DNA of 64,000 bases from Giardia intestinalis. Taxonomy: Eukaryota. Positions 7,190 through 44,899 of this stretch are shown here, one piece after another. The notes under the pieces were generated by a model that was not told where the DNA came from, made no database searches, and saw nothing but the letters and a program-made list of their open reading frames with translations. The position numbers were made by a program, and so were the translations under genes. How positions within the stretch are numbered: the first letter of the stretch is position 1; every line of letters begins with the position of its first letter. The stretch is from NCBI GenBank assembly GCA_000002435.2, contig CM018789.1; one strand, given 5' to 3'.

Positions 7190-8801
7190 ATCGGAGTTTG
7201 ATGCGCGGTACCAACTAAAGGAAGTAGTCAATCGAGGAACGTTTCGTACCACCTACCGGGTGTACGATAACCAGAGTGGAGAGCACCTCTATTGCAAGCG
7301 GCTGGATGCATCCAATATGCCGGCCTCTCAGCTTTCGGCCTTCGTTAGTAACATGATGTCCATCTCTGCCCTGCAGGAAAAGGGATACCTGGCCATAGAT
7401 ACGGTGTTTGTGCTTGCGAAGCGCAAGCTTGCATATATAGTAACCCCAGACTTCGGAGACTGTAGCCTGGCACACCTGATCCACACTGCTAGACGACAGC
7501 AGACCTCCTTCGAGGAGTCCTTAGTGTGGCGAGTGCTCGCTCAAATTGCAGCCAAGCTTTATGCCCTCCACTTTCCAGGGGAGCACGGCATACGCCCAGG
7601 GCGAAGGTTCATCCATTGTCAGCTTAAGCCATCAAATATCTTTCTCAGCCAGGCCCTCACGGTCTTCATTGTAGACCCTTTGGGCGTTGCTTTCTCGTCT
7701 TATTGCTGGGCAAACTCAGACGACGACGGATTTCGCTATATCCCCAACGAGGCCCTCACTGCCGCTACCCTTACTTCGAAAATAGACATTTACTCTCTCG
7801 GTTGTGTCCTTTATGAGCTATGCACCCTCTTCTCGCGTACCTTCCACGAGTCCCCTGTCGATTATGTCACCCTTCTGAGAGAGACACACTACAGCTCCCA
7901 GCTGAAGGATCTTGTTCTAGCCATGCTCAGCCCATACCCAGATGCTAGACCGTCGGCGCAGGACCTCATGCACAACACCACCATAGCTCAATATCTAAAG
8001 CTTCAATTTGCGTGCTTGAAGTTGTCCACACCTACGCAGAAGCTCCTCTCGTACACGAATATTGCCCACGACCTTAAGAGCATGGCAGAAGAAAACGAGG
8101 CGTCAACTTACAACCCACATGGTATTCACAGAGACTCACGGGCCGTGTCACCAGCAACTGTTCACAGCCTTGAGACACGGTCTATTGCTCTCGCATCCGA
8201 CGATGCCTCTTCCCCAGCTCAGGATGCATCCCTGCAGCAGCTGGCTACACCATCTATTGACACAGTCGAACAGGGTGTCAATACCCTTTTGGATATGGAA
8301 TTGCACCAAAGGGAATTCTCACTCAATCTTTCTCAGATCTCGCATTCGCAACTTGGGATTGACGAACTATCCAATCTTAAGAATTATTGCAGATTTTTAG
8401 AAAATGAAGTAGCAGCCCTGCGATCGGATTTGATCATTGCAGAGTCTCTCAAGCATAAGTACAACGATGAGCTGACAAACACTCGAGTCCAGCTCATGAA
8501 GTATATAGACTCAGAGGCGGCATCAATGTCCCCTGCACTTGCAGACAAACACAAACACGAACATAGCGAAGATGTGTATTCACTAAAAAATAAAATTAAG
8601 GATCTTGAGATCCAACTATCCATGGAGCGGGCAAACACGTTCATTCTGCGTCGAGAAAATGCAAAACTGATGGAGCATCTCAGGAACATAGACGTGACAA
8701 TGACCACGTGTGCAGAGCAAAATGTCAGTCCAAAGGAAATGGTTGATCAAGTTCGTTCGACCAGTATTGCTGCTAGGCGCGTATGTGCGGAAACAGTGTG
8801 A
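7158..8801 (+). CDS. NEK-like protein kinase fold with a C-terminal coiled coil; predicted catalytically inactive (pseudokinase)
   Basis: Kinase-domain order is YQLKEVVNRGTFRTTYRV (degenerate Gly loop), ...LYCKRL, then a catalytic loop RFIHCQLKPSNIFL where HRD is replaced by HCQ. DFG is replaced by DPLG (FIVDPLGVAF). The C-terminus is a coiled coil (LKNYCRFLENEVAALRSDL...). Start moved from the ORF-track 7095 to the ATG at 7158, which is preceded by gttaaaa. Confidence 0.7.
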   Translation: MAKRGPEDLSESEFDARYQLKEVVNRGTFRTTYRVYDNQSGEHLYCKRLDASNMPASQLSAFVSNMMSISALQEKGYLAIDTVFVLAKRKLAYIVTPDFGDCSLAHLIHTARRQQTSFEESLVWRVLAQIAAKLYALHFPGEHGIRPGRRFIHCQLKPSNIFLSQALTVFIVDPLGVAFSSYCWANSDDDGFRYIPNEALTAATLTSKIDIYSLGCVLYELCTLFSRTFHESPVDYVTLLRETHYSSQLKDLVLAMLSPYPDARPSAQDLMHNTTIAQYLKLQFACLKLSTPTQKLLSYTNIAHDLKSMAEENEASTYNPHGIHRDSRAVSPATVHSLETRSIALASDDASSPAQDASLQQLATPSIDTVEQGVNTLLDMELHQREFSLNLSQISHSQLGIDELSNLKNYCRFLENEVAALRSDLIIAESLKHKYNDELTNTRVQLMKYIDSEAASMSPALADKHKHEHSEDVYSLKNKIKDLEIQLSMERANTFILRRENAKLMEHLRNIDVTMTTCAEQNVSPKEMVDQVRSTSIAARRVCAETV

Positions 8802-8818
8802 GTAGAAGCACTAGCACG

Positions 8819-10873
8819 TCACTCCTTATCAACCATGGCTTCTATCTCTGGCTGGAGCTGATTGTAGAGCTTCTTTCTGCAGAGCTTCTGTGTCGCTGTG
8901 AGACATCCATTTTCTATCGTGAATTCACGTCTCAGCAAGTGTATGTCCTTAAGGTGCATAAACGGCTTCATCCCCGCCTCCGAGTGCACTTTCGTGAGGT
9001 CTTTTACGATTTTCTGCTTAAGGAGACCCATTATGTGATTTTCCACATGCTTCCCCTCTAGAACGGAGAAGGAGCCCAGGGCCTCAACCTGCTCATTGGT
9101 GTGAACAGAGTCGGTTGCTGTATCATCTACGAGCTTGTCATGGAGCCCCGTCAGCGACAGAGGTTGGTCAGGCGAGAAATAGTTGGCCACATTCAGCTTA
9201 GCAAGCAGGCTTTCGCTTGGTACAACAAAAGCATAGAGGTGGTTCGAGTTGGGTGTCTGTGGAATGTAGATGGCACTGATCAGCGCGCTTTGCAGGTACA
9301 TAAGCTCAATTGTCTCTGGACAGACAAATTCACCGTTCTGCAGCTTGAAATTGGTATTAATTCTATCTTTGAGGATCAGCTTGTTGTCCTCATTCATCAG
9401 TCCACAATCACCAGATCTATACCATTCAGTTGACGGCGGAAAGTTATGAATATTTTCATAAAAGGTCTCTCCGGGCACGTAGTACCGGCTAAACATGGAG
9501 CTGCCACGAAGCAGAACCTCGTTCTCGGATGGGTCTATTCTCAGCTCCATATTTGGACACACAACCCCACAGTTTCCAACAGAATAGTCCGACTCGCACT
9601 GCACGGTGACACAGGCACACGTCTCTGTCTGTCCGTAGCCCTGGATGAGGTTACATTGAAAGAAGTCCTGAACAAAAAGGTGCACCTTGGGAGGAAGGGA
9701 CGCACCTCCAGATATCATCAGCTTGAAGTTGACGCCTATCTTGCGCTTCACAAGCCCATAGAGACACCGCCTGGCAAACCTTTGTAGCATGCTGTCTCCC
9801 TTGAGCCCGTAGTGGAACCACCCACGAGTGAGTGGGGAGGCCTCCAGCTTGCTGCGGATTGCCTGGTAGAGAGTCGTGTAGACTTTAGGCACGCCACACA
9901 GGATATCCGGTTTAACGTCTTGCATGTCACGTAAAAGTGATTTGAAGTCTCCTCGCCAGAAATAAACCTTACCACCAATGATTATACCAGTTGCCTGAAT
10001 TACGCGCTCATAGATGTGTGCCATGGGCAAATAGGAAAGGTAGTGAAGTCCTCTCCCGCTGCGCACAAAATCAAGAGGAGTCAGAAGATAGCCGTAACAG
10101 GCAGAGGTGAGCGCGCCGTGCGAGATGATAACGCCCTTTGGCGTAGAAGATGTTCCAGATGTATAAATTAAACTAGAAATGGTACTGGGCGTGGGAGGCA
10201 CCGGCGGTACTACATGGACTGCGGCCGTTACGTACCCAAGAATATCTGTGAGACGGGGGTTTGCCATGCCAGAGCGCGCTAGAAGCTGCTCGAGCTCCTC
10301 CACCTGGTTTCCAGGGATGGCACGCTCAAACTCGAGGTCGGTAGTGAGTATTACGGCCTTGAGGAATGAAAGGTCGACCACTGCTTGCGCAAGCGTTTTA
10401 ACCAACCGCCCAATCTTATCACGGCTTATCACCAGGATGTCAGGCCTGGTTGCGTCGATACAGTACGACATGCCGTGTGCAGACAGCGAATCATAAATGG
10501 GAACAAGCACCATAGACTGTCTGTTACAGGCCTGTTCGGTGATAATCCACTCTGGGCTGTTGCAGGACCAGAGCATGACCATCGATCCGGGCTTCAGACC
10601 GAACTTGGTCACAAATGCTGTCGCAAAACGCTCTATATTAGAACGCATGGTCCTGTAGGTGATACCTTCATAAGCCAGGCGCTCGATTGTCTGGGTCTGC
10701 GCGTTGAAGCGAAGAGGTGAATGGAAATAAACGAGCTCGTCAAGTCGAAGCAGAGAGTACTTCTCCCAAATAGCATAGAGGGTTTCCTCGTCTGCCGGTG
10801 CAGTTACAGGGTCGTCGCCGAGGCCTGTCCTCGACTTGTAGGGGTTCAGATAGATCGTCGGGTGAGGCGTCAT
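8819..10873 (-). CDS. Long-chain fatty-acid-CoA ligase (acyl-CoA synthetase, AMP-binding family)
   Basis: AMP-binding motif IYTSGTSSTPKGVIISH (YTSGTTGxPKGV); GYGQTETCA; the C-terminal half is typical of LACS. The ORF-track start at 11008 is GTG. The first ATG with an AT-rich leader (ctaaaaccaaaaATG) is 10873, giving MTPHPTIYLNPYKS... Confidence 0.85.
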   Translation of the reverse strand: MTPHPTIYLNPYKSRTGLGDDPVTAPADEETLYAIWEKYSLLRLDELVYFHSPLRFNAQTQTIERLAYEGITYRTMRSNIERFATAFVTKFGLKPGSMVMLWSCNSPEWIITEQACNRQSMVLVPIYDSLSAHGMSYCIDATRPDILVISRDKIGRLVKTLAQAVVDLSFLKAVILTTDLEFERAIPGNQVEELEQLLARSGMANPRLTDILGYVTAAVHVVPPVPPTPSTISSLIYTSGTSSTPKGVIISHGALTSACYGYLLTPLDFVRSGRGLHYLSYLPMAHIYERVIQATGIIIGGKVYFWRGDFKSLLRDMQDVKPDILCGVPKVYTTLYQAIRSKLEASPLTRGWFHYGLKGDSMLQRFARRCLYGLVKRKIGVNFKLMISGGASLPPKVHLFVQDFFQCNLIQGYGQTETCACVTVQCESDYSVGNCGVVCPNMELRIDPSENEVLLRGSSMFSRYYVPGETFYENIHNFPPSTEWYRSGDCGLMNEDNKLILKDRINTNFKLQNGEFVCPETIELMYLQSALISAIYIPQTPNSNHLYAFVVPSESLLAKLNVANYFSPDQPLSLTGLHDKLVDDTATDSVHTNEQVEALGSFSVLEGKHVENHIMGLLKQKIVKDLTKVHSEAGMKPFMHLKDIHLLRREFTIENGCLTATQKLCRKKLYNQLQPEIEAMVDKE

Positions 10874-37840: not shown

Positions 37841-38683
37841 CTACCGATTGTGTTTACATCTGTTTACAACTCTGCAGAGCCGACTGGGGGTTGCCGCATA
37901 TGCACCGTATGCTTCCCTGAGCATATATGTGTCGAACTCTGCCTCTGCTAGCTGGATGTTGAAGACACTCGTTGTCTTGTCGGTTGAGGTGCAACCATCT
38001 GCTCCCTTCTGCAGTTGACTGCACAGCTGGCACGTCCTTGCCACGTAGATGGCCTGGATGGTCTTCTCCGGCAGCGCTACTTGATAGATGAAGGGGTACT
38101 GCTCCAGCCTCCCGTTGTCTCCGTACCTAATTCTGCCGCGAACCGCCTCCTCGTCGACATGGAGCGCCAGCCTCCCGAAGTCCTCGAACGTCAGCTCTCG
38201 GATGCTGTGCCTTGGGTTGCAGAACGTGCTGCTGTCCGACAACAGCTTCACGGTTATCGCAGAGTATATCTCGGCCAGGCTGTGATACGACTTTACCCAG
38301 AGGTAGCCGAGGCTGCACACCGGCGCGAGGAGGGTGCTACACAGGAAAAGCGTCCCGGTGTCGTATCTGTGCATGATGTTTCCAAGGACCACCCCGTGGA
38401 GCATCATGTTGATGCACTCGTTGAGCGTCTGGAAGGAGAGAGAGGAGTCCTTCTGGCTCTTGTTCGCCATGAGTTCTCTGAAGTACCGCATCTTCTTGTC
38501 CTTGGCAGTCCTGTCGACGTAGAAGGACGCCTGGATGCAGGGCAGGTGGTGGTAGTAGCTGCATGTCACGAGGGCGAAGATGAACTCGCAGAGAAACAGC
38601 CTTACCCCTACAACATGATCCACTTTACCCCCTGATTGTTTCCAGTGTTGTGTTGTTAGGGCACGCCTATAGATGTGGTTCAA
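37841..38683 (-). CDS. Hypothetical GC3-rich protein; the true 5' end is unresolved
   Basis: The minus frame has strong third-position G/C bias, whereas the antisense plus ORF 38015..38635 has mixed third positions. The track start at 38683 is TTG; the first in-frame ATG is at 38491. The GC3-biased coding signal, including the hydrophobic LFLCEFIFALVTCSYY, continues about 190 nt upstream of that ATG. Confidence 0.45.
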   Translation of the reverse strand: MNHIYRRALTTQHWKQSGGKVDHVVGVRLFLCEFIFALVTCSYYHHLPCIQASFYVDRTAKDKKMRYFRELMANKSQKDSSLSFQTLNECINMMLHGVVLGNIMHRYDTGTLFLCSTLLAPVCSLGYLWVKSYHSLAEIYSAITVKLLSDSSTFCNPRHSIRELTFEDFGRLALHVDEEAVRGRIRYGDNGRLEQYPFIYQVALPEKTIQAIYVARTCQLCSQLQKGADGCTSTDKTTSVFNIQLAEAEFDTYMLREAYGAYAATPSRLCRVVNRCKHNR

Positions 38684-39009
38684 AGATTTTACAAATAGAC
38701 TTACTTCATTTATAACTGTATTTAGAGATGGAGGTAGCTAGTGGTTATGAATGTAGAGCTTTTCTGACACCTTTGCTTATCAAATCTGGTGCGCTCTCTA
38801 AGAGACTTTTATATTTAACCAATACGCGCGCATCGGTTACCGCTCGACCGTAGCCCTCCTCCTCTTGCCCCCTGCGAGGACGCCGCCACTGGCTAGACGC
38901 GGGCGTCGTTGCTGCCCGGCCTTCTCGTGACCTCCTTCCTTCATGAGGTGTGCTCACCCCTCTCCGTCAGCACCACTCTCTGACGCATACACAGCTTGTC
39001 CATCCGGCC

Positions 39010-40220
39010 CTTGAGAAGAGCCACATCACACGAGGAAGGGCGCCGTTTACTCGAGGAGAGAGGCGATTGCGTCGTGGCCATGCCTCCTTGCGATGTCGAG
39101 GGCGGTGGTGCCGGGCGGGAAGCCGAGCCACTCACGGGTGGTCTGCATGCCTTTCTCCTTGTCCATCAGGAGCCTCGCACACTCCAGGTGACCACCCTGC
39201 GCTGCATGCATGAGCGCTGTCCATCCGTTGTTAGTCTTCATGCCGTCTTCTTTGTCTACTAGAAGCCTCACGCAGTCCGAGCAACCGTTGTCGGCTGCGT
39301 GCATGAGGGCAGTCCACCCACTGTTGGCCCTCATCCCGCCTTCCTTGTCCAGTAGAGCCTCCGCACACTCGCGGCGCCCATACTGTGCTGCATACATTAG
39401 GGCGGTCTTCCCATCATCCGTTTTCATGCCACCCTCCCTCTCCAGGAGGAGCTGCACGGACTCCAGTTTGCCGCGCCGTGCTGCGTACATAAGGGCGGTG
39501 GTGCCGTTGTTCCTCCGTTTGCCGCCTTCCCTCTTCAGCAGGAACTTCACGCATTCCGGGTGGCCCCCGTACGCCGCCCGCATGAGCGCGGTCTCTCCAA
39601 GCTTATTCTGTGTGCTACCTTTCATCTTCAGCAGAACCTTCACGGCTCTCAGGTTTCCATACTCTGCTGCTGACATGATGTCGGTCTCGACGAAGCCGTA
39701 TTTCAGCAACAAAAAAGACGAGAGACTCAGCCCGCTCCTCCCTTGTTGGTGGTAAAACTCTGCGGCTTCATCGATGCTCCTATCAGAAGCAGACCCCTCG
39801 GTGTCCTGAGGGCGACGACTCGCCTCCGAATCCCTGAGCACACCACTCGACATTTTTAACTTCGTCTGCTTGCAGGAAGACACTGCCACGGAAACACACA
39901 CTTTGCTCTCTGCTTCACTGAAAACGGTTTGTCAACTGCTGTCCGAGCATCTCCGTGAGAGCCGCCGCGCTGGGTGGGCCGCCCGCTCACCGTCCGGGGT
40001 CCAAGGTTCAGATCTTGAAGCTCGAACTCGTGCCCTCATACAAGGCCTCCTCCCCTGTGGGTAGGCGGGTCTCACGCTCGTTCACTTCTCCAATCCAGGA
40101 CTCAGAACTCGAAGCTTGAGCGTCGAATGTCATGATGATTTACTCCACCCACCGGTTGCTTCCAGTGGTGTGCTGCTGGGGCCTGCCTGCAGGTATGGTC
40201 CAGAGATCCCACGGGCAAGC
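39010..40220. repeat. Left arm of a 1,211-bp perfect inverted duplication; it is the reverse complement of 43142..44352
   Basis: Boundaries were verified base by base at both ends: ...cttctcaag | g versus a on the outside, and gcttgcccgtggg... on the inside. The three encoded ORFs of 284, 181 and 64 aa are identical in both arms. Confidence 0.9.
39047..39901 (-). CDS. Ankyrin-repeat protein, 284 aa, copy A; identical to the 43461..44315 protein
   Basis: Seven ankyrin repeats (TALMRAAYGGHPECVKFLL, TALMYAARRGKLESVQLLL, TALMYAAQYGRRECAEALL, TALMHAADNGCSDCVRLLV, TALMHAAQGGHLECARLLM, TALDIARRHGHDAIASLLE). It is GC3-rich, and 319 bp of identical upstream sequence is included in the repeat. Confidence 0.75.
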   Translation of the reverse strand: MCVSVAVSSCKQTKLKMSSGVLRDSEASRRPQDTEGSASDRSIDEAAEFYHQQGRSGLSLSSFLLLKYGFVETDIMSAAEYGNLRAVKVLLKMKGSTQNKLGETALMRAAYGGHPECVKFLLKREGGKRRNNGTTALMYAARRGKLESVQLLLEREGGMKTDDGKTALMYAAQYGRRECAEALLDKEGGMRANSGWTALMHAADNGCSDCVRLLVDKEDGMKTNNGWTALMHAAQGGHLECARLLMDKEKGMQTTREWLGFPPGTTALDIARRHGHDAIASLLE

Positions 40221-43141
40221 TCTTGCTCAGTCCCTGACTAGTCCGGAGACGAGGGTTGGTCGTGTATCAATATAAGGACCACAGTGGTAGTAGGAGGAGC
40301 TATTGCGTTCCTCAGCTGTTCTACGGGCGTGTGCTCGGTCTAGGTGTGCACATAGGTCCTTTTGGAGATCAAGCCATCTCATGGACTCACTGGTCTACTA
40401 GGGTGCCTCTCCTTGCTCTCCCCTCACGGTGAGTGAAGCTCTGGTCTTTGTTGTCATTCTCAATACTGTCCATGTAGATCAGCAGCAGCTAGCGGGGCTT
40501 TCTCTTCTGGTTGGGATTCAACTCGGTTGTGTGTCCAGTCTTTGCACCTTCTCGGTCGTTGTCGACAGGTCCCAGGGGTGGATTCATTCAGCTGTCAGAA
40601 GTAGGATGACAGGAGACGGTCGCTCTGGGTGACCAGGCTTTCGGCCCGGCCCGTCTGATCAGCTTCGTCGGGTGCTCGTTCGCCTCTGCAGCCATGTGGG
40701 CGATGGCGAAGGCAGCCCGGACAGAGAGCTTCTCAACGTCCACGTGGAGCTCCTCGAGGTGCCCCTTGGACTGGGGTGGAGGGATCCGTCTGTCCCGTAG
40801 ATGATCGGGAGCGTCCCGTCCCTGTACTTCTTGACCTTCTCGTTGTAGTAGGCATCCATCTGGCGGAGCTGGATGACACCCACATCTATCGCCTTGCACT
40901 TGTCGACAAGCCAGATGTCGGGCTTCTGGTTCTGGTCGCTGAGGTGGCTGTGGGTCTCGACTTCCAGTTCCGGTTGAGCTTCCCCGAGACGCGGAGGCAC
41001 AGGCACGCGACGATCATGTCGTGCCTCGTGGTCGAGGGTCCACGCCGTGTGGCAGCCCGGGCAGGTGCCTCTTGTCTGCGCCATGATCGAGCCGCCCTTC
41101 TCCTTCAGGGCCCTTTCCTCCTCGGTCAGCACGCCGCCGCTCTGTCCGGAAGCTGGTGTGCGCGTGAGGAGGCGGTTGAAGTAGGCCCCTTCCCCTGCAG
41201 TGCCTGGCCGTTCACCGGCAGCTCCACCGGGTCTCTGGTCCCCTTGTTGACGTCCAGGGAGGCCCATACCCTCCGCAGCTCGTCGTGGTAGGATCCAGGC
41301 ATGAGCAGGCCCAGGCCGCCCTTCTCCTTCGGGTACGCCAGGAAGTCGACCAGGCGATCGCAGCTTCTGTTGGTTAGTGCTGAAGCCTTGTGCGACGCGT
41401 CTGTTGAGCTCCTCGTAGTCCGCCTTGTCCGATGTTACTTCGACCAGGGGGGCGTAGCTCACCATCGGGACCACGCAGTGACATCAGGATGAGCTTCTGG
41501 TGGGTGGTTATGGGGGCGTTCTCAATCTTCCTCAGGGCAGTCACAGCACCTGCGATGACCTTTGGAGCTTGCAGGAGTGGGGGACGCCGGGTGGTTGAGG
41601 AAGGTCACCTCCTCGCCCGCCATGGTGGACTTGCATTGTCGCTCCTGATCGTCAGGCCCATGGCGGCAGCCTCTGCTGTGGCCAGCTGTGTTATCACACC
41701 TGCTGGGTACCCTTCGTCGTGGAACGCCACGATGTCGTCCGCTAGGCAAGGAAGGTGATGCCCCTCTCCCTGAGGCGTCTCAGGAGGCGCTCGATGGCCA
41801 TGCAGAAGAGGAGCGTGCTGAGCGGGCTGCCCTGGGGGACGCCACAGACCTCGCACTTCACGTCCCGGCTGTGCCTCAGATCGAGGAAGTTCCTGATGTA
41901 GTCGATCAGGACCTTCAGGATGCCCGCCTCGTTCAGGGCTCTGATGACCTCCGCCTTCGGGAGCGAGTTGAAGGCATTCTTTGTGTCGAGGGAGACGGCG
42001 TGCTCCTGTCCTGCTGATGAGCTCGTGGGCCCTCCTCACACCTACCGCGTACGCGTTCTGCTTGAAGGCGATCTGCTCGCATGAGAGGTAGTTGGCATGC
42101 TTGATCAGCCCTTCAGCAGGACGCGGTGGAAGATGTTCGTGACCATCCGCCTATCGCGATCGGGGTATCCGTCGGACTCTTTCGGGATGAGGATCGCCCG
42201 GAACTCGAACATGGCCATCACGTCGGACATCGCCTCGGGGTGGGTGGTCAGCTCGTTGTACGCCTGCGTGAGGTACTTCACGAAGCTGTCGTTCTGCTTC
42301 ATCGCCTTGAGCTGGACCGGCCCGAGGCCAGACACGCCTGAGGCCTTCTTGTTGAGAGTCCTAACAGGGCCTTCCTCATTTCCTCCTCGGTTGCCGCTCC
42401 AGCCCGTCGAGCTCATCGATGGAGGGTAGTCAAGGCCAACGTAGCCTTCGGGGGGACGCACGGGTGTCTCATCAAGGGCGCGGAGAGCCTTAGCAACTGC
42501 TCCGAAGCTCAGCGCGTTGTTCACCCTGTTTGCTATCCGGCGTCTCGCCTTCTCGGGGTCTGGGTCTGCCTTACTCTGGGCCTGCTCTACTGTGTTGCTT
42601 GAGTCCTCTGGGGCTTCCCACCAGGGCGTTCAGGCCCCTGATAGCAGGGAGCGCGACCCCAGTCCCGGCCTGTTCGATGCTCGCGATCATGCGTGCCCCC
42701 TGGTGGATGAGCATAGCGAGCTCTGTCTGGTTCGGTACTGGGCCGGAATGATCAACTTGTCGTCGCCCAGCACTCTGTGTCTGTCATCGTTTGCTTCTCT
42801 CAGGTGCTCGGTTGGTTGCTTGGCGCTCTCGCACGGTAGGCCACAGAGCCAGCGTGTGTGTCCTGCTGAGAGAGTAAACGTCTTTGGAGTGGTCCCCCGA
42901 GTAGAGACTCACGGCTTGCTCTCTGGGTGTCCCTGAGGTACGATTTTGCATTCGTAGTGCAGATCTGGTCCTCGCGGGCTCTCCTTCGCCTCAGGTCCAG
43001 CTGTGCGCACGCCCACGGAACAGCCGAGGAACGCACAGACCCCAGATCCACAAACGGAGGGAGCTCCTCCTATCACCGTTGTGGCTATCGTTACGACCCG
43101 CGGCCAACCCTCATCTCCAGACTGGCCGGGAATTGAGCGAG
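40221..43141 (-). mobile_element. Degenerate ('dead') non-LTR retrotransposon remnant of the R2/CRE/NeSL/Genie clade, carrying reverse transcriptase, a CCHC zinc finger and a restriction-like (REL) endonuclease. Its sense is on the minus strand, with the 5' end near 43141 and the 3' end near 40221.
   Basis: RT motifs, read on the minus strand across three different frames: FRAILIPKESDGYP (42200-42160), LDTKNAFNSL, VCGVPQGSPLSTLLFCMAIE, then ITFLA[TAG]ADDIVAFHDEG. In the last of these the Tyr codon of YADD is a stop and the frame shifts (about 41740). A C-terminal CPGCHTAWTLDHE plus KPDIWLVDKCKAIDVGVI (PD..D...K REL-endo) lies at ~41050-40900. The body is GC-rich (~62%), unlike the flanks. All the ORFs in this interval (40659..41474, 41605..42039, 42105..42524 and others) are fragments. 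Confidence 0.75.
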
Positions 43142-44352
43142 GCTTGCCCGTGGGATCTCTGGACCATACCTGCAGGCAGGCCCCAGCAGCACACCACTGG
43201 AAGCAACCGGTGGGTGGAGTAAATCATCATGACATTCGACGCTCAAGCTTCGAGTTCTGAGTCCTGGATTGGAGAAGTGAACGAGCGTGAGACCCGCCTA
43301 CCCACAGGGGAGGAGGCCTTGTATGAGGGCACGAGTTCGAGCTTCAAGATCTGAACCTTGGACCCCGGACGGTGAGCGGGCGGCCCACCCAGCGCGGCGG
43401 CTCTCACGGAGATGCTCGGACAGCAGTTGACAAACCGTTTTCAGTGAAGCAGAGAGCAAAGTGTGTGTTTCCGTGGCAGTGTCTTCCTGCAAGCAGACGA
43501 AGTTAAAAATGTCGAGTGGTGTGCTCAGGGATTCGGAGGCGAGTCGTCGCCCTCAGGACACCGAGGGGTCTGCTTCTGATAGGAGCATCGATGAAGCCGC
43601 AGAGTTTTACCACCAACAAGGGAGGAGCGGGCTGAGTCTCTCGTCTTTTTTGTTGCTGAAATACGGCTTCGTCGAGACCGACATCATGTCAGCAGCAGAG
43701 TATGGAAACCTGAGAGCCGTGAAGGTTCTGCTGAAGATGAAAGGTAGCACACAGAATAAGCTTGGAGAGACCGCGCTCATGCGGGCGGCGTACGGGGGCC
43801 ACCCGGAATGCGTGAAGTTCCTGCTGAAGAGGGAAGGCGGCAAACGGAGGAACAACGGCACCACCGCCCTTATGTACGCAGCACGGCGCGGCAAACTGGA
43901 GTCCGTGCAGCTCCTCCTGGAGAGGGAGGGTGGCATGAAAACGGATGATGGGAAGACCGCCCTAATGTATGCAGCACAGTATGGGCGCCGCGAGTGTGCG
44001 GAGGCTCTACTGGACAAGGAAGGCGGGATGAGGGCCAACAGTGGGTGGACTGCCCTCATGCACGCAGCCGACAACGGTTGCTCGGACTGCGTGAGGCTTC
44101 TAGTAGACAAAGAAGACGGCATGAAGACTAACAACGGATGGACAGCGCTCATGCATGCAGCGCAGGGTGGTCACCTGGAGTGTGCGAGGCTCCTGATGGA
44201 CAAGGAGAAAGGCATGCAGACCACCCGTGAGTGGCTCGGCTTCCCGCCCGGCACCACCGCCCTCGACATCGCAAGGAGGCATGGCCACGACGCAATCGCC
44301 TCTCTCCTCGAGTAAACGGCGCCCTTCCTCGTGTGATGTGGCTCTTCTCAAG
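43142..44352. repeat. Right arm of the 1,211-bp perfect inverted duplication; it is the reverse complement of 39010..40220
   Basis: See the left arm. About 40 bp of roughly 80%-identical degenerate extension continues inward on both sides (40221-40262 against 43100-43141). Confidence 0.9.
43461..44315 (+). CDS. Ankyrin-repeat protein, 284 aa, copy B; identical to copy A
   Basis: The protein is identical to the 39047..39901 translation. Both copies are transcribed outward, away from the central retroelement. Confidence 0.75.
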   Translation: MCVSVAVSSCKQTKLKMSSGVLRDSEASRRPQDTEGSASDRSIDEAAEFYHQQGRSGLSLSSFLLLKYGFVETDIMSAAEYGNLRAVKVLLKMKGSTQNKLGETALMRAAYGGHPECVKFLLKREGGKRRNNGTTALMYAARRGKLESVQLLLEREGGMKTDDGKTALMYAAQYGRRECAEALLDKEGGMRANSGWTALMHAADNGCSDCVRLLVDKEDGMKTNNGWTALMHAAQGGHLECARLLMDKEKGMQTTREWLGFPPGTTALDIARRHGHDAIASLLE

Positions 44353-44899
44353 AGGCAGAGAGAAAATGTCAGATAGGTGGGTTTGTGTGTGCCGGAAAGC
44401 AGTACAATGGAAATGGTAGCATATAGATATATGGAGATAGCGATATTATTAATGGAGTATGGCGGCAATGCAGAGAATGACGGTGAATACTGGTAATCCA
44501 TAGGTCAGATTCTTAAAGGCTGAAAATCTAAGAGCTCTACTAGGACTGCTTAGCATAGTAGTACGAAGCTCGGATAAGAAATTATAAAGTAATTGATAAG
44601 AGTATAGAAATGAAGATTTACAGACAAGAAGAATAAACTAACGTAATAGCAAATACTACAGGACCATAAGCTGAGTGTATAGCATCATTAAGCAACAGAG
44701 TTCTGTTGGAAGCCAAGTCTACGCCATCACTATAATTTAATCAAGTGTGCTGCTACACATTATAAAAGGAAAGGAGACCTTTGTAGAACCTCCATTATTA
44801 TCACAGCGATCATGACAGTGAGATATCAGGTATTCTAGATCCACAAAGACTCACCAGACGAGTTGAACCTTTGAATGAATGATTTGCAAACACAGACCT

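Follow-up and report, generated by a model that had tools for sequence, protein, structure and literature searches.

The window analysed here is a 64,000-nucleotide stretch of Giardia intestinalis DNA (contig CM018789.1 of assembly GCA_000002435.2), and the locus under study within it is a pair of ankyrin-repeat genes that lie in the two arms of an inverted repeat, on either side of a decayed retrotransposon. A base-by-base check revealed that 39010-40220 is the reverse complement of 43142-44352 over 1211 bp with 0 mismatches, confirming the repeat coordinates and the perfect identity reported in a first-pass annotation made from the sequence alone. The claims that each arm carries a complete ankyrin gene, that both genes are transcribed outward, and that ORFs of 284, 181 and 64 aa are found in both arms in identical form were borne out as well. 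An automated repeat search gave a length of 1225 nt at "100%"; only 8 of the 14 extra outer bases match, and thus the true exact length is 1211 bp. Within the 64-kb window, the repeat search revealed no other repeat of 60 nt or longer. The arms and their genes are as follows.

39010..40220, no strand: left arm of the exact inverted repeat (base-by-base match, flank contig ends, contiguity in P15)
43142..44352, no strand: right arm of the exact inverted repeat (base-by-base match, flank contig ends, outer 127 bp in P15)
39047..39853, minus strand: ankyrin-repeat gene, left copy, 268 aa if begun at the ATG; the GTG-initiated ORF reaches 39901
43509..44315, plus strand: ankyrin-repeat gene, right copy, 268 aa plus stop, identical in sequence to the left copy

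The inverted repeat also runs further inward, a continuation that does not appear in the first-pass annotation: 40221-40301 pairs with 43141-43062 over approximately 81 bp at approximately 78% identity with small indels, and the full alignment including this inward part covers 1295 bp at 98.07%. Each arm had been divided into a 37-bp 3' flank, an 855-bp ORF and 319 bp of upstream sequence; these lengths are correct, but the innermost 82-87 bp of the 319 bp belong to the retroelement terminal repeat. The host DNA in each arm amounts to approximately 1.13 kb (the gene, approximately 285 bp upstream and 37 bp downstream) and abuts both element ends in opposite orientation.

The 284-aa ORF begins at a GTG, and the eukaryotic start codon is likely the ATG at 43509 (mirrored at 39853), which gives a protein of 268 aa. 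This ATG lies in an A-rich context, AAGTTAAAAATG, which we take to be typical of Giardia starts, and the TAA stop falls within AGTAAA, presumably the polyadenylation signal. The product matches Pfam Ank_2 with E=2.6e-51, and its Pfam matches (Ank, Ank_2-5 and the KRIT1 ankyrin domain) all fall in ankyrin-repeat families; kinase and zinc-finger domains are absent. Its nearest database relatives in a word-indexed search are Giardia proteins named "Ankyrin repeat protein" and "Protein 21.1", with identities of at most approximately 55% and mostly below 50%; the recall of this search was poor, a later run having missed the record of its own query, and absence from its results is not taken as evidence. 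The dN/dS value of the gene is approximately 0.3-0.6, and assemblage E isolate P15 carries a positional ortholog of the left copy (7740-9404 of locus L026) in which the unique N- and C-termini match. The arm gene is a conserved, intact ankyrin-repeat gene of the ARP-1/protein 21.1 type. An exact look-up of 20 ORF variants (the ankyrin protein with 10 alternative starts and 10 ORFs of the arms and spacer) in a collection of 15 billion proteins found none of them recorded, unlike the genes flanking the palindrome, which are present in the same collection from more than 100 assemblies. The output of a HMMER search of cluster representatives was dominated by giant multi-repeat ankyrin proteins, and two metagenome scans found no Giardia locus. 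The duplication is predicted to double one ARP gene and to create a long palindrome prone to rearrangement.

The spacer had been described as a decayed non-LTR retrotransposon, and its content agrees with that description.

40139..43223, minus strand: putative GilD/Genie-2-type dead non-LTR retrotransposon, 3085 bp (approximately 3.09 kb), collinear with paralogous copies
40139..40301, no strand: element 3' terminal inverted repeat, of which the outer 82 bp (40139-40220) form part of the perfect arm and the inner 81 bp are approximately 78% identical to the partner
43062..43223, no strand: element 5' terminal inverted repeat, of which the outer 82 bp (43142-43223) form part of the perfect arm
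41745..42035, minus strand: reverse-transcriptase domain fragment (Pfam RVT_1, E=1e-13, 51.9 bits, profile positions 64-149 of 205)
40463..41474, minus strand: frameshifted region C-terminal to the RT, homologous to Giardia "Reverse transcriptase/endonuclease, putative"

The ends of the element, set at approximately 40139 and 43223 by collinearity with the paralogous copies L012 (84%), L011 (86%) and L010 (87%), are good to within 5 bp, and a GATGAT motif at 40134-40139 may belong to the element. An RVT_1-bearing ORF of L010 aligns to 42354-41742 over three reading frames at 79-91% amino-acid identity. The region at 40463..41474 has 37 database matches at 41-93% identity and changes frame on the tblastn map; the annotated "Reverse transcriptase/endonuclease, putative" homologs of the element come from WB, DH and GS. 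In all, the reading frame of the element changes at 42109, ~42032, ~41742, 41476, ~40776 and ~40648, its longest ORF is 271 aa, and no ORF is intact. Genie 2/GilD is reportedly a "dead" non-LTR family of Giardia, whose members are approximately 3 kb long and dispersed, with a degenerate RT ORF and terminal inverted repeats of up to approximately 172 bp. The window element resembles them in its length of approximately 3 kb, its degenerate RT fragment and its terminal inverted repeats of approximately 170 bp, and appears to be of this type. The terminal repeats measure approximately 163-170 bp in the window element and 170 nt at 98% identity in L012, in agreement with the first-pass statement that degenerate Giardia retroelements have short inverted repeats of up to about 170 bp. 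The difference from GilD/Genie 2 is that the inverted repeat of the window copy takes in a further 1.13 kb of host DNA beyond the element, a whole gene included. The complete paralogous elements L011 and L012 both lack a flanking palindrome.

Taken together, the locus is probably a real and old gene-bearing palindrome around a dead GilD/Genie-2-type element, with arms kept identical by conversion. The layout itself has precedents among surface-antigen genes. For the WB long-read genome, Xu et al. 2020 (PMC7000408, Table 2) list identical head-to-head VSP pairs that enclose an RT remnant, and identical VSP and CRMP pairs around RT remnants have also been noted elsewhere (bioRxiv 10.1101/2022.03.07.483299). 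As in the ankyrin locus, two identical divergently transcribed genes enclose a dead RT element, and the gene-to-gene spacing of approximately 3.2-6.3 kb in those pairs may be compared with an ATG-to-ATG distance of 3.66 kb here. The suggestion that this palindrome is a novel structure, much larger than and functionally different from known ones, is thus not supported. The cargo differs, being an ankyrin-repeat protein and not a cysteine-rich surface protein, and those papers do not give the age of the pairs, the end of the identity tract relative to the terminal repeat, or concerted evolution. Beyond the known VSP/CRMP pairs, the present locus contributes no more than its ankyrin cargo and the evidence on age and on concerted evolution.

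With regard to the origin of the palindrome, and judging only from its geometry, we give slightly less than an even chance to a scenario in which the short inverted repeat needed for a fold-back or template switch would have been supplied by the terminal repeats of the element. The DNA flanking one end of the element would thereby be copied to its other end, and it would follow that the host symmetry begins precisely at the two termini. Short inverted repeats are said to seed large palindromes by fold-back or intrastrand annealing after a break, and palindrome formation by ODIRA is reportedly also seeded by short inverted repeats. The Giardia locus resembles these cases in having a short inverted repeat (the element terminal repeats) at the inner edge of the arms and an asymmetric loop kept as the spacer. 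However, repeat-seeded palindromes are usually terminal or amplified, whereas the Giardia arm is interstitial and 1.2 kb long and requires a second junction at 39010 or 44352.

The reverse order of events is that a host pair of ankyrin genes already existed and that the retroelement inserted at its fragile centre without any causal role. The exact start of the host symmetry at both element ends would fit this order too, and the centres of palindromes are break-prone. Moreover, tail-to-tail identical VSP pairs exist that have no RT remnant between them (PMC7000408). We nevertheless consider this order unlikely, since an ordinary insertion should be flanked by a direct target-site duplication and would have to fall precisely on the axis of symmetry. 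In addition, the RT remnant lies between the genes in 4 of the 7 head-to-head VSP pairs of WB (PMC7000408), which suggests a causal link, although one that could run in either direction. Nothing in the present data discriminates firmly between the two orders.

The age of the duplication can be judged from assemblage E. The P15 locus (L026) is syntenic with the window on both sides, and a retroelement remnant whose 5' half is missing sits between its two copies. The outer boundaries of the inverted repeat in P15 lie at the same nucleotides as in assemblage A, with the orthologous flanks side by side: the left arm is contiguous with its outer flank, and the outer 127 bp of the right arm are at the orthologous place. 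In P15 the left gene is thus complete, the right arm is reduced to a remnant of 125 bp and the element is truncated; the inverted repeat of P15 itself measures 98 nt at 82% identity. The element 3' terminal repeat was also sought beside the left gene copy of P15, and the alignment was not significant. Because assemblage E shares the inverted-repeat boundaries with assemblage A, the inverted duplication is shown to be older than the split of the two assemblages. In the assemblage E lineage, a deletion of approximately 2.5 kb probably took most of the right arm together with the 5' half of the element, and the remaining 125-bp stub then diverged freely from the left copy.

The outer ends of the arms can also be followed in other assemblies of assemblage A. 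One Logan contig (L023) and 4 similar ones that come from the left flank end at 39039, 30 nt inside the left arm, while at least 20 Logan contigs from the right flank extend to 44323/44324, likewise 30 nt into the right arm; 30 nt equals k-1 for k=31. An ENA scaffold of 61.8 kb from a different source ends approximately 55 nt inside the right arm. In independent short-read assemblies, an identical 30-mer is joined to two different flanks. Among these sequences, AII-like strains, which are approximately 1% diverged (the AI-AII divergence given in PMC4570179), carry 2 substitutions (44327 and 44329) and 1 indel in the arm tail. Even so, their contigs stop at the same boundary, 30 or 55 nt into the arm, so that both of their arms must carry the changes, as judged on the outer 30-55 nt.

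These observations bear on the possibility that the copy formed very recently in assemblage A, for instance by a fold-back primed in the terminal repeat, and has had no time to diverge. The 0 differences in 1211 bp would be expected of such an event, and the sharp drop to approximately 78% identity inside the terminal repeat is the pattern that priming there should leave. However, assemblage E has the same boundaries on both sides with copies that are only 78% identical, the AII-like strains share the break boundary and have their own substitutions in both arms, and derivation of the assemblage A state from a P15-like one would require re-creation of the element 5' half, which P15 lacks. A young duplication is thus largely refuted by the P15 locus, and we regard it as improbable. 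Of the explanations first offered for the perfect identity, recent formation is disfavoured on these grounds, and ongoing homogenisation is supported by the boundaries in assemblage E and the strain-specific substitutions in both AII-like arms.

An old palindrome with homogenised arms also agrees with the pairwise comparisons. Over the 129 alignable columns shared by the copies, with assemblage E represented by one draft assembly, identity is 84.4% between A and E-right, 83.7% between A and E-left, and 78.3% between E-right and E-left. Assemblage A shares its base with E-right alone at 14 sites and with E-left alone at 13, a star-like pattern. The arms of assemblage A differ at 0 of 1211 positions, as against the 78% identity of the assemblage E copies with the same boundaries, and these comparisons strongly suggest that recurrent arm-to-arm gene conversion keeps the assemblage A arms identical. 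The identity tract goes 82 bp into the element terminal repeat and stops where the repeats are approximately 22% diverged; heterology of this degree would be expected to stop heteroduplex extension. At aligned codons, GC3 is 0.71 in A and 0.59 in the single-copy E ortholog, and the A/E differences comprise 113 sites at which a weak base (A/T) of E faces a strong one (G/C) of A, as against 71 of the reverse kind. This is suggestive of GC-biased conversion in the assemblage A arms, although the GC3 gap is unpolarised and AT-biased decay in the E lineage could equally account for it.

The ampliconic palindromes of the primate Y chromosome are reportedly held identical by arm-to-arm gene conversion in a similar manner. 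They likewise have gene-bearing arms, a unique spacer and near-perfect identity despite an origin before a lineage split, and a GC-biased conversion signature is a further possible likeness. In Giardia, however, the arms span 1.2 kb, as against 9 kb to 1.45 Mb on the Y chromosome, a retroelement bearing inverted repeats of its own forms the spacer, and the host is a tetraploid protist with no sex chromosome.

Loci like the ankyrin palindrome break short-read assemblies and are easily mis-polished, and either one arm could be spurious or real differences between the arms could have been erased by short-read polishing. A perfect identity of 1.2 kb is the outcome expected from polishing with multi-mapping reads, and no ORF of the arms or spacer is found in the gene calls of other assemblies. 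Three lines of evidence make such an artefact very improbable. First, the same arm end is attached to both flanks across short-read assemblies of many runs and a scaffold of different origin, and an artefact is unlikely when independent assemblies break exactly k-1 inside each arm; this evidence from other assemblage A strains is confined to the outermost 30-55 nt of the arms. Second, the asymmetric 2.9-kb spacer with diverged inner repeats is unlike the palindrome of a chimeric read. Third, the inverted repeat is also present in a different assemblage that was assembled with a different technology. The first-pass concern about an assembly artefact is accordingly disfavoured, although multi-mapping short reads, if used to polish the source assembly, could have made the 100% arm identity a slight overestimate.

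We give equally little credence to a functional hairpin-RNA locus, in which a read-through transcript would fold into a 1.2-kb double-stranded stem that feeds RNAi while selection keeps the arms identical: the geometry permits it, and a telomeric retroposon family of Giardia is reported to give rise to small sense and antisense RNAs (Ullu et al. 2005, as cited in PMC2875222), but the genes face outward, normal transcription does not span both arms, and an Rfam search gave no match.

The old and probably converted palindrome offers a datable case of how the multigene families of Giardia duplicate and stay homogeneous. Two assemblages share this inverted duplication, perfectly homogenised in A and decaying in E after truncation of one arm, and it thus represents a natural experiment on intrachromosomal gene conversion, its minimum homology and its possible GC bias. 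Giardia is tetraploid, and allelic heterozygosity in assemblage A is very low; to our knowledge, meiosis has not been demonstrated in this genus. The layout of an identical gene pair around a dead retroelement is extended from surface-antigen genes to the large ankyrin family, and the ankyrin palindrome makes the role of the element terminal repeats directly testable in long-read genomes. A broader proposal would be that GilD/Genie-2 terminal repeats are general seeds of gene-bearing palindromes (VSP, CRMP and ARP) whose arms are then kept identical, beyond the A/E divergence, by possibly GC-biased conversion. We hold this proposal to be distinctly speculative and, on balance, quite unlikely. 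If it were true, a dead retroelement family would constitute a long-lived system of gene duplication and proof-reading in a parasite with little or no meiotic sex, and the arms might also supply hairpin RNA.

The DNA outside the arms contains two further features, both to the left of the palindrome.

37841..38616, minus strand: truncated gene remnant X', a 5'-truncated conserved hypothetical gene that ends where a retroelement terminus starts
38615..38687, plus strand: decayed solo outer end of an element terminal repeat, oriented the same way as the left one

The P15 proteins GLP15_3616 and GLP15_124 align to the remnant by tblastn, and in P15 the same truncated remnant arrangement adjoins the ARID gene. 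The interval that contains the palindrome is bounded by a 391-aa ankyrin gene and by this ARID gene. Two contigs (L006 and L007) in which a 642-aa gene is joined to the ARID side were considered as the ancestral "empty" arrangement; this idea was dropped, because P15 has the window-type arrangement, which is thus the shared and older one. The L006 type is more likely a recombinant between two partial gene copies, or a chimeric contig. Outside the right arm, an ankyrin-like short frame at 44407-44496 was considered as a remnant of a replaced gene, and the evidence was too weak. The solo terminal-repeat copy aligns with 40135-40207 over 73 bp at 72.6% identity, with a local alignment score of 66 versus 26 +/- 3 for shuffled sequences, and a multiple alignment supports the match as well. 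GC-to-AT transitions account for 13 of its 20 differences, and the copy is kept in P15 at 9805-9877 of L026.

In a direct comparison, the two arms (39010-40220 and 43142-44352) proved to be perfect reverse complements of each other over 1211 bp, with 0 mismatches, so that the coordinates in the first-pass annotation were exact to the base. A repeat search returned 1225 nt, but the extra 14 outer bases match at only 8/14, and 1211 bp was therefore taken as the exact length; this palindrome was the sole long repeat found in the 64-kb window. The first-pass annotation had the extent of the perfect part right and overlooked a diverged inward continuation of the inverted repeat (40221-40301 vs 43141-43062, ~78% identity with small indels). 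The GC content of the block at ~38750-44250 is 0.58-0.64, compared with ~0.43-0.49 in its flanks. The flanking genes encode identical protein sequences in >100 public Giardia duodenalis short-read assemblies, and proteins of Giardia are also the best relatives of those encoded locally.

The spacer encodes a frameshifted reverse transcriptase (RT) on its minus strand. A stop-free piece at 42035-41745 matched Pfam RVT_1 (E=1e-13), and the downstream part to ~40463 matched many Giardia proteins annotated as 'Reverse transcriptase/endonuclease, putative', with the reading frame changing repeatedly; these matches bear out its identification as a decayed non-LTR retrotransposon. Three paralogous copies in the assembly of the AII isolate DH are collinear with the spacer element at 84-87% identity, which set the element ends at ~40139 and ~43223 and its length at 3.09 kb. 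Each perfect arm is thus made up of 1129 bp of host DNA (39010-40138, mirrored on the right) followed inward by the outermost 82 bp of the terminal repeat of the element; the remaining 81 bp of that repeat, on its inner side, are only ~78% identical between left and right. Inverted repeats in Genie 2/GilD copies reach up to ~172 bp in length. In one paralogous copy, L012, the terminal inverted repeats measure 170 nt and are 98% identical, in agreement with the short repeats mentioned in the first-pass annotation, and the flanking palindrome is absent from two complete paralogous copies, including L012.

An assembly artefact had been considered as an alternative explanation of the palindrome. 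Independent assemblies gave a clear answer that the outer arm junctions are real. Right-flank contigs from at least 20 runs end at 44323 or 44324, 30 nt into the right arm, and left-flank contigs stop at 39039, 30 nt into the left arm; 30 nt is k-1 for de Bruijn assemblies with k=31. These ends indicate that one 30-mer adjoins two different flanks. In addition, a 61.8-kb ENA metagenome scaffold ends ~55 nt into the right arm, and the asymmetric spacer with its diverged inner repeats is unlike a chimeric palindromic read.

In runs SRR3177739, SRR10209740 and SRR10209741, a 61-kb right-flank contig (L003-L005, L021, L022; 44374-44384) ends 22-32 nt short of the arm, and 2 of the contigs ending before the right arm have a mismatched final base; low coverage or a different junction could account for these early ends. 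Left-flank contigs L008 and L024 stop at 38901, 109 bp before the arm, while L023 and others reach 39039; the segment 38872-39009 is GC-rich and may have a coverage drop or contain another short repeat. A collection of 15 billion proteins contained none of 20 ORF variants taken from arms and spacer, while the flanking genes were found in 126-181 index blocks; either no genes were called on such short repeat contigs, or short-read data under-assemble the region.

Each arm contains one ankyrin-repeat ORF (Pfam Ank_2, E=2.6e-51), whose start codon is probably the ATG at 43509 (mirror 39853). This ATG lies in the A-rich context AAGTTAAAAATG, and the TAA stop falls within AGTAAA; we take these to be a typical Giardia start context and a polyadenylation signal, respectively. 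The positional ortholog in assemblage E (L026 7740-9404) has the same unique termini (N-terminal MSSGVL...DEAAEFY, C-terminal EWLGFPPGTTALDIA...) and ~5 additional 31-residue (93-bp) repeats relative to 43509-44315. Its annotated start precedes the conserved MSSGVL start by 131 codons and is probably over-extended. Together with the shared termini, a dN/dS of 0.3-0.6 (A vs E, alignable ends) shows that the gene is conserved, fast-evolving and probably functional.

The architecture of this palindrome was already known, since the long-read genome of WB contains 19 identical inverted VSP pairs, 7 of them head-to-head, and in 4/7 head-to-head pairs the genes are 3.2-6.3 kb apart with an RT remnant between them (PMC7000408, Table 2). 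A later preprint reported the same for VSP and CRMP pairs, with retrotransposon remnants between head-to-head pairs (bioRxiv 10.1101/2022.03.07.483299), and nanopore work predicted many inversions and a few inverted duplications within isolates (PMC7048089). The ankyrin palindrome shares its architecture with the head-to-head VSP/CRMP pairs but differs in cargo. The novelty claimed in the first-pass annotation was thus overstated; the new points are the ankyrin cargo, together with the evidence on age and concerted evolution.

The orthologous locus of P15, an assemblage E isolate (L026), is syntenic with the window locus on both sides.

Features of the P15 locus L026, in order
Feature 1: 391-aa ankyrin gene
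Feature 2: intergenic region
Feature 3: 125-bp remnant, corresponding to the right arm's outer end
Feature 4: element remnant, C-terminal region (tblastn)
Feature 5: ankyrin gene, full-length copy, in left-arm orientation
Feature 6: 393-bp stretch
Feature 7: truncated gene
Feature 8: ARID gene

In a four-way alignment, A and E share the first nucleotide of the inverted repeat on either side, and each outer flank in A is orthologous to its E counterpart. The comparison across assemblages proposed earlier thus recovered the repeat in P15 with identical boundaries, and these findings showed that a single inverted duplication preceded the A/E split. A later loss of ~2.5 kb in P15 removed the inner right arm together with the element's 5' half.

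We compared the four copies over the 129 columns common to both A arms, E-left and E-right (the P15 counterparts of the two arms). E-left and E-right were 78.3% identical, whereas both A arms were 84.4% identical to E-right and 83.7% to E-left. A agreed with E-right only at 14 sites and with E-left only at 13, and differed from both mutually agreeing E copies at 6. This star-like pattern indicates that the arms were still alike when A and E split. Silent-site divergence of the gene between A and E is 0.4-1.1, and the A arms differ at 0/1211 positions in the assembled sequence. Assemblage A strains diverged by ~1%, a size matching AII (PMC4570179), have 2 substitutions and 1 indel in the arm tail, of which the outermost 30-55 nt are seen; their contigs break 30 or 55 nt into the arm, so those changes are present in both arms. 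The arms are thus homogeneous, and the simplest explanation is recurrent arm-to-arm gene conversion; of the first-pass alternatives, homogenisation is the one supported. Conversion tracts would halt 82 bp into the element's terminal repeat, the inner repeat being too diverged, and conversion in E would have ended once just 125 bp of homology remained. GC3 is 0.71 in the palindromic A copy (43509-44312) vs 0.59 in the single-copy E ortholog (aligned codons) and 0.44-0.50 in neighbouring genes. In the unpolarised A/E comparison, 113 differences have A/T in E where A has G/C and 71 show the reverse, which is suggestive of GC-biased gene conversion in the A arms.

On each side, the symmetry of host DNA begins precisely at the end of the element. 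Such symmetry would result if a fold-back event or a template switch, acting between the terminal repeats of the element, copied one flank to the other side; alternatively, the element may have inserted into the middle of a pre-existing palindrome.

The inner terminal repeat (40260-40280, 43080-43100; L010, L011 and L012, the paralogous copies; alignment A1 of the terminal repeats) occurs in two sequence variants, TATCAATAYAAAGACC and GGYCGTAACGATARYC. Their distribution between 5' and 3' ends differs among element copies, with one variant at both ends of L012, which hints at conversion or flipping inside elements. At L011 6875-14803 (DH contig AHGT01000021.1), a 241-aa ankyrin gene is directed away from the element's 5' end, VSP genes lie downstream of its 3' end, and an 86-nt inverted repeat (78% identity) spans 6.7 kb; the element family is here again associated with multigene-family genes.

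A third, heavily decayed copy of the terminal repeat's outer end lies at 38615-38687 (also L026 9805-9877), its differences being mostly GC-to-AT transitions. It begins exactly at the truncation point of the neighbouring gene 37841-38616 and is conserved in assemblage E; this gene was thus already disrupted at a terminus of the element when A and E split. Contigs L006 and L007 (SRR10063833, SRR10063826) are 99.98% identical to the window as far as 38616 and then continue into different DNA with an intact 642-aa ORF, a 1459-aa gene and a VPS13-like gene. In P15, the N-terminal and C-terminal halves of the gene occupy separate loci (L027 and L026) with ~360 bp in common; the L006 type thus looks like a recombinant of two partial gene copies, an inversion allele or a chimeric contig.
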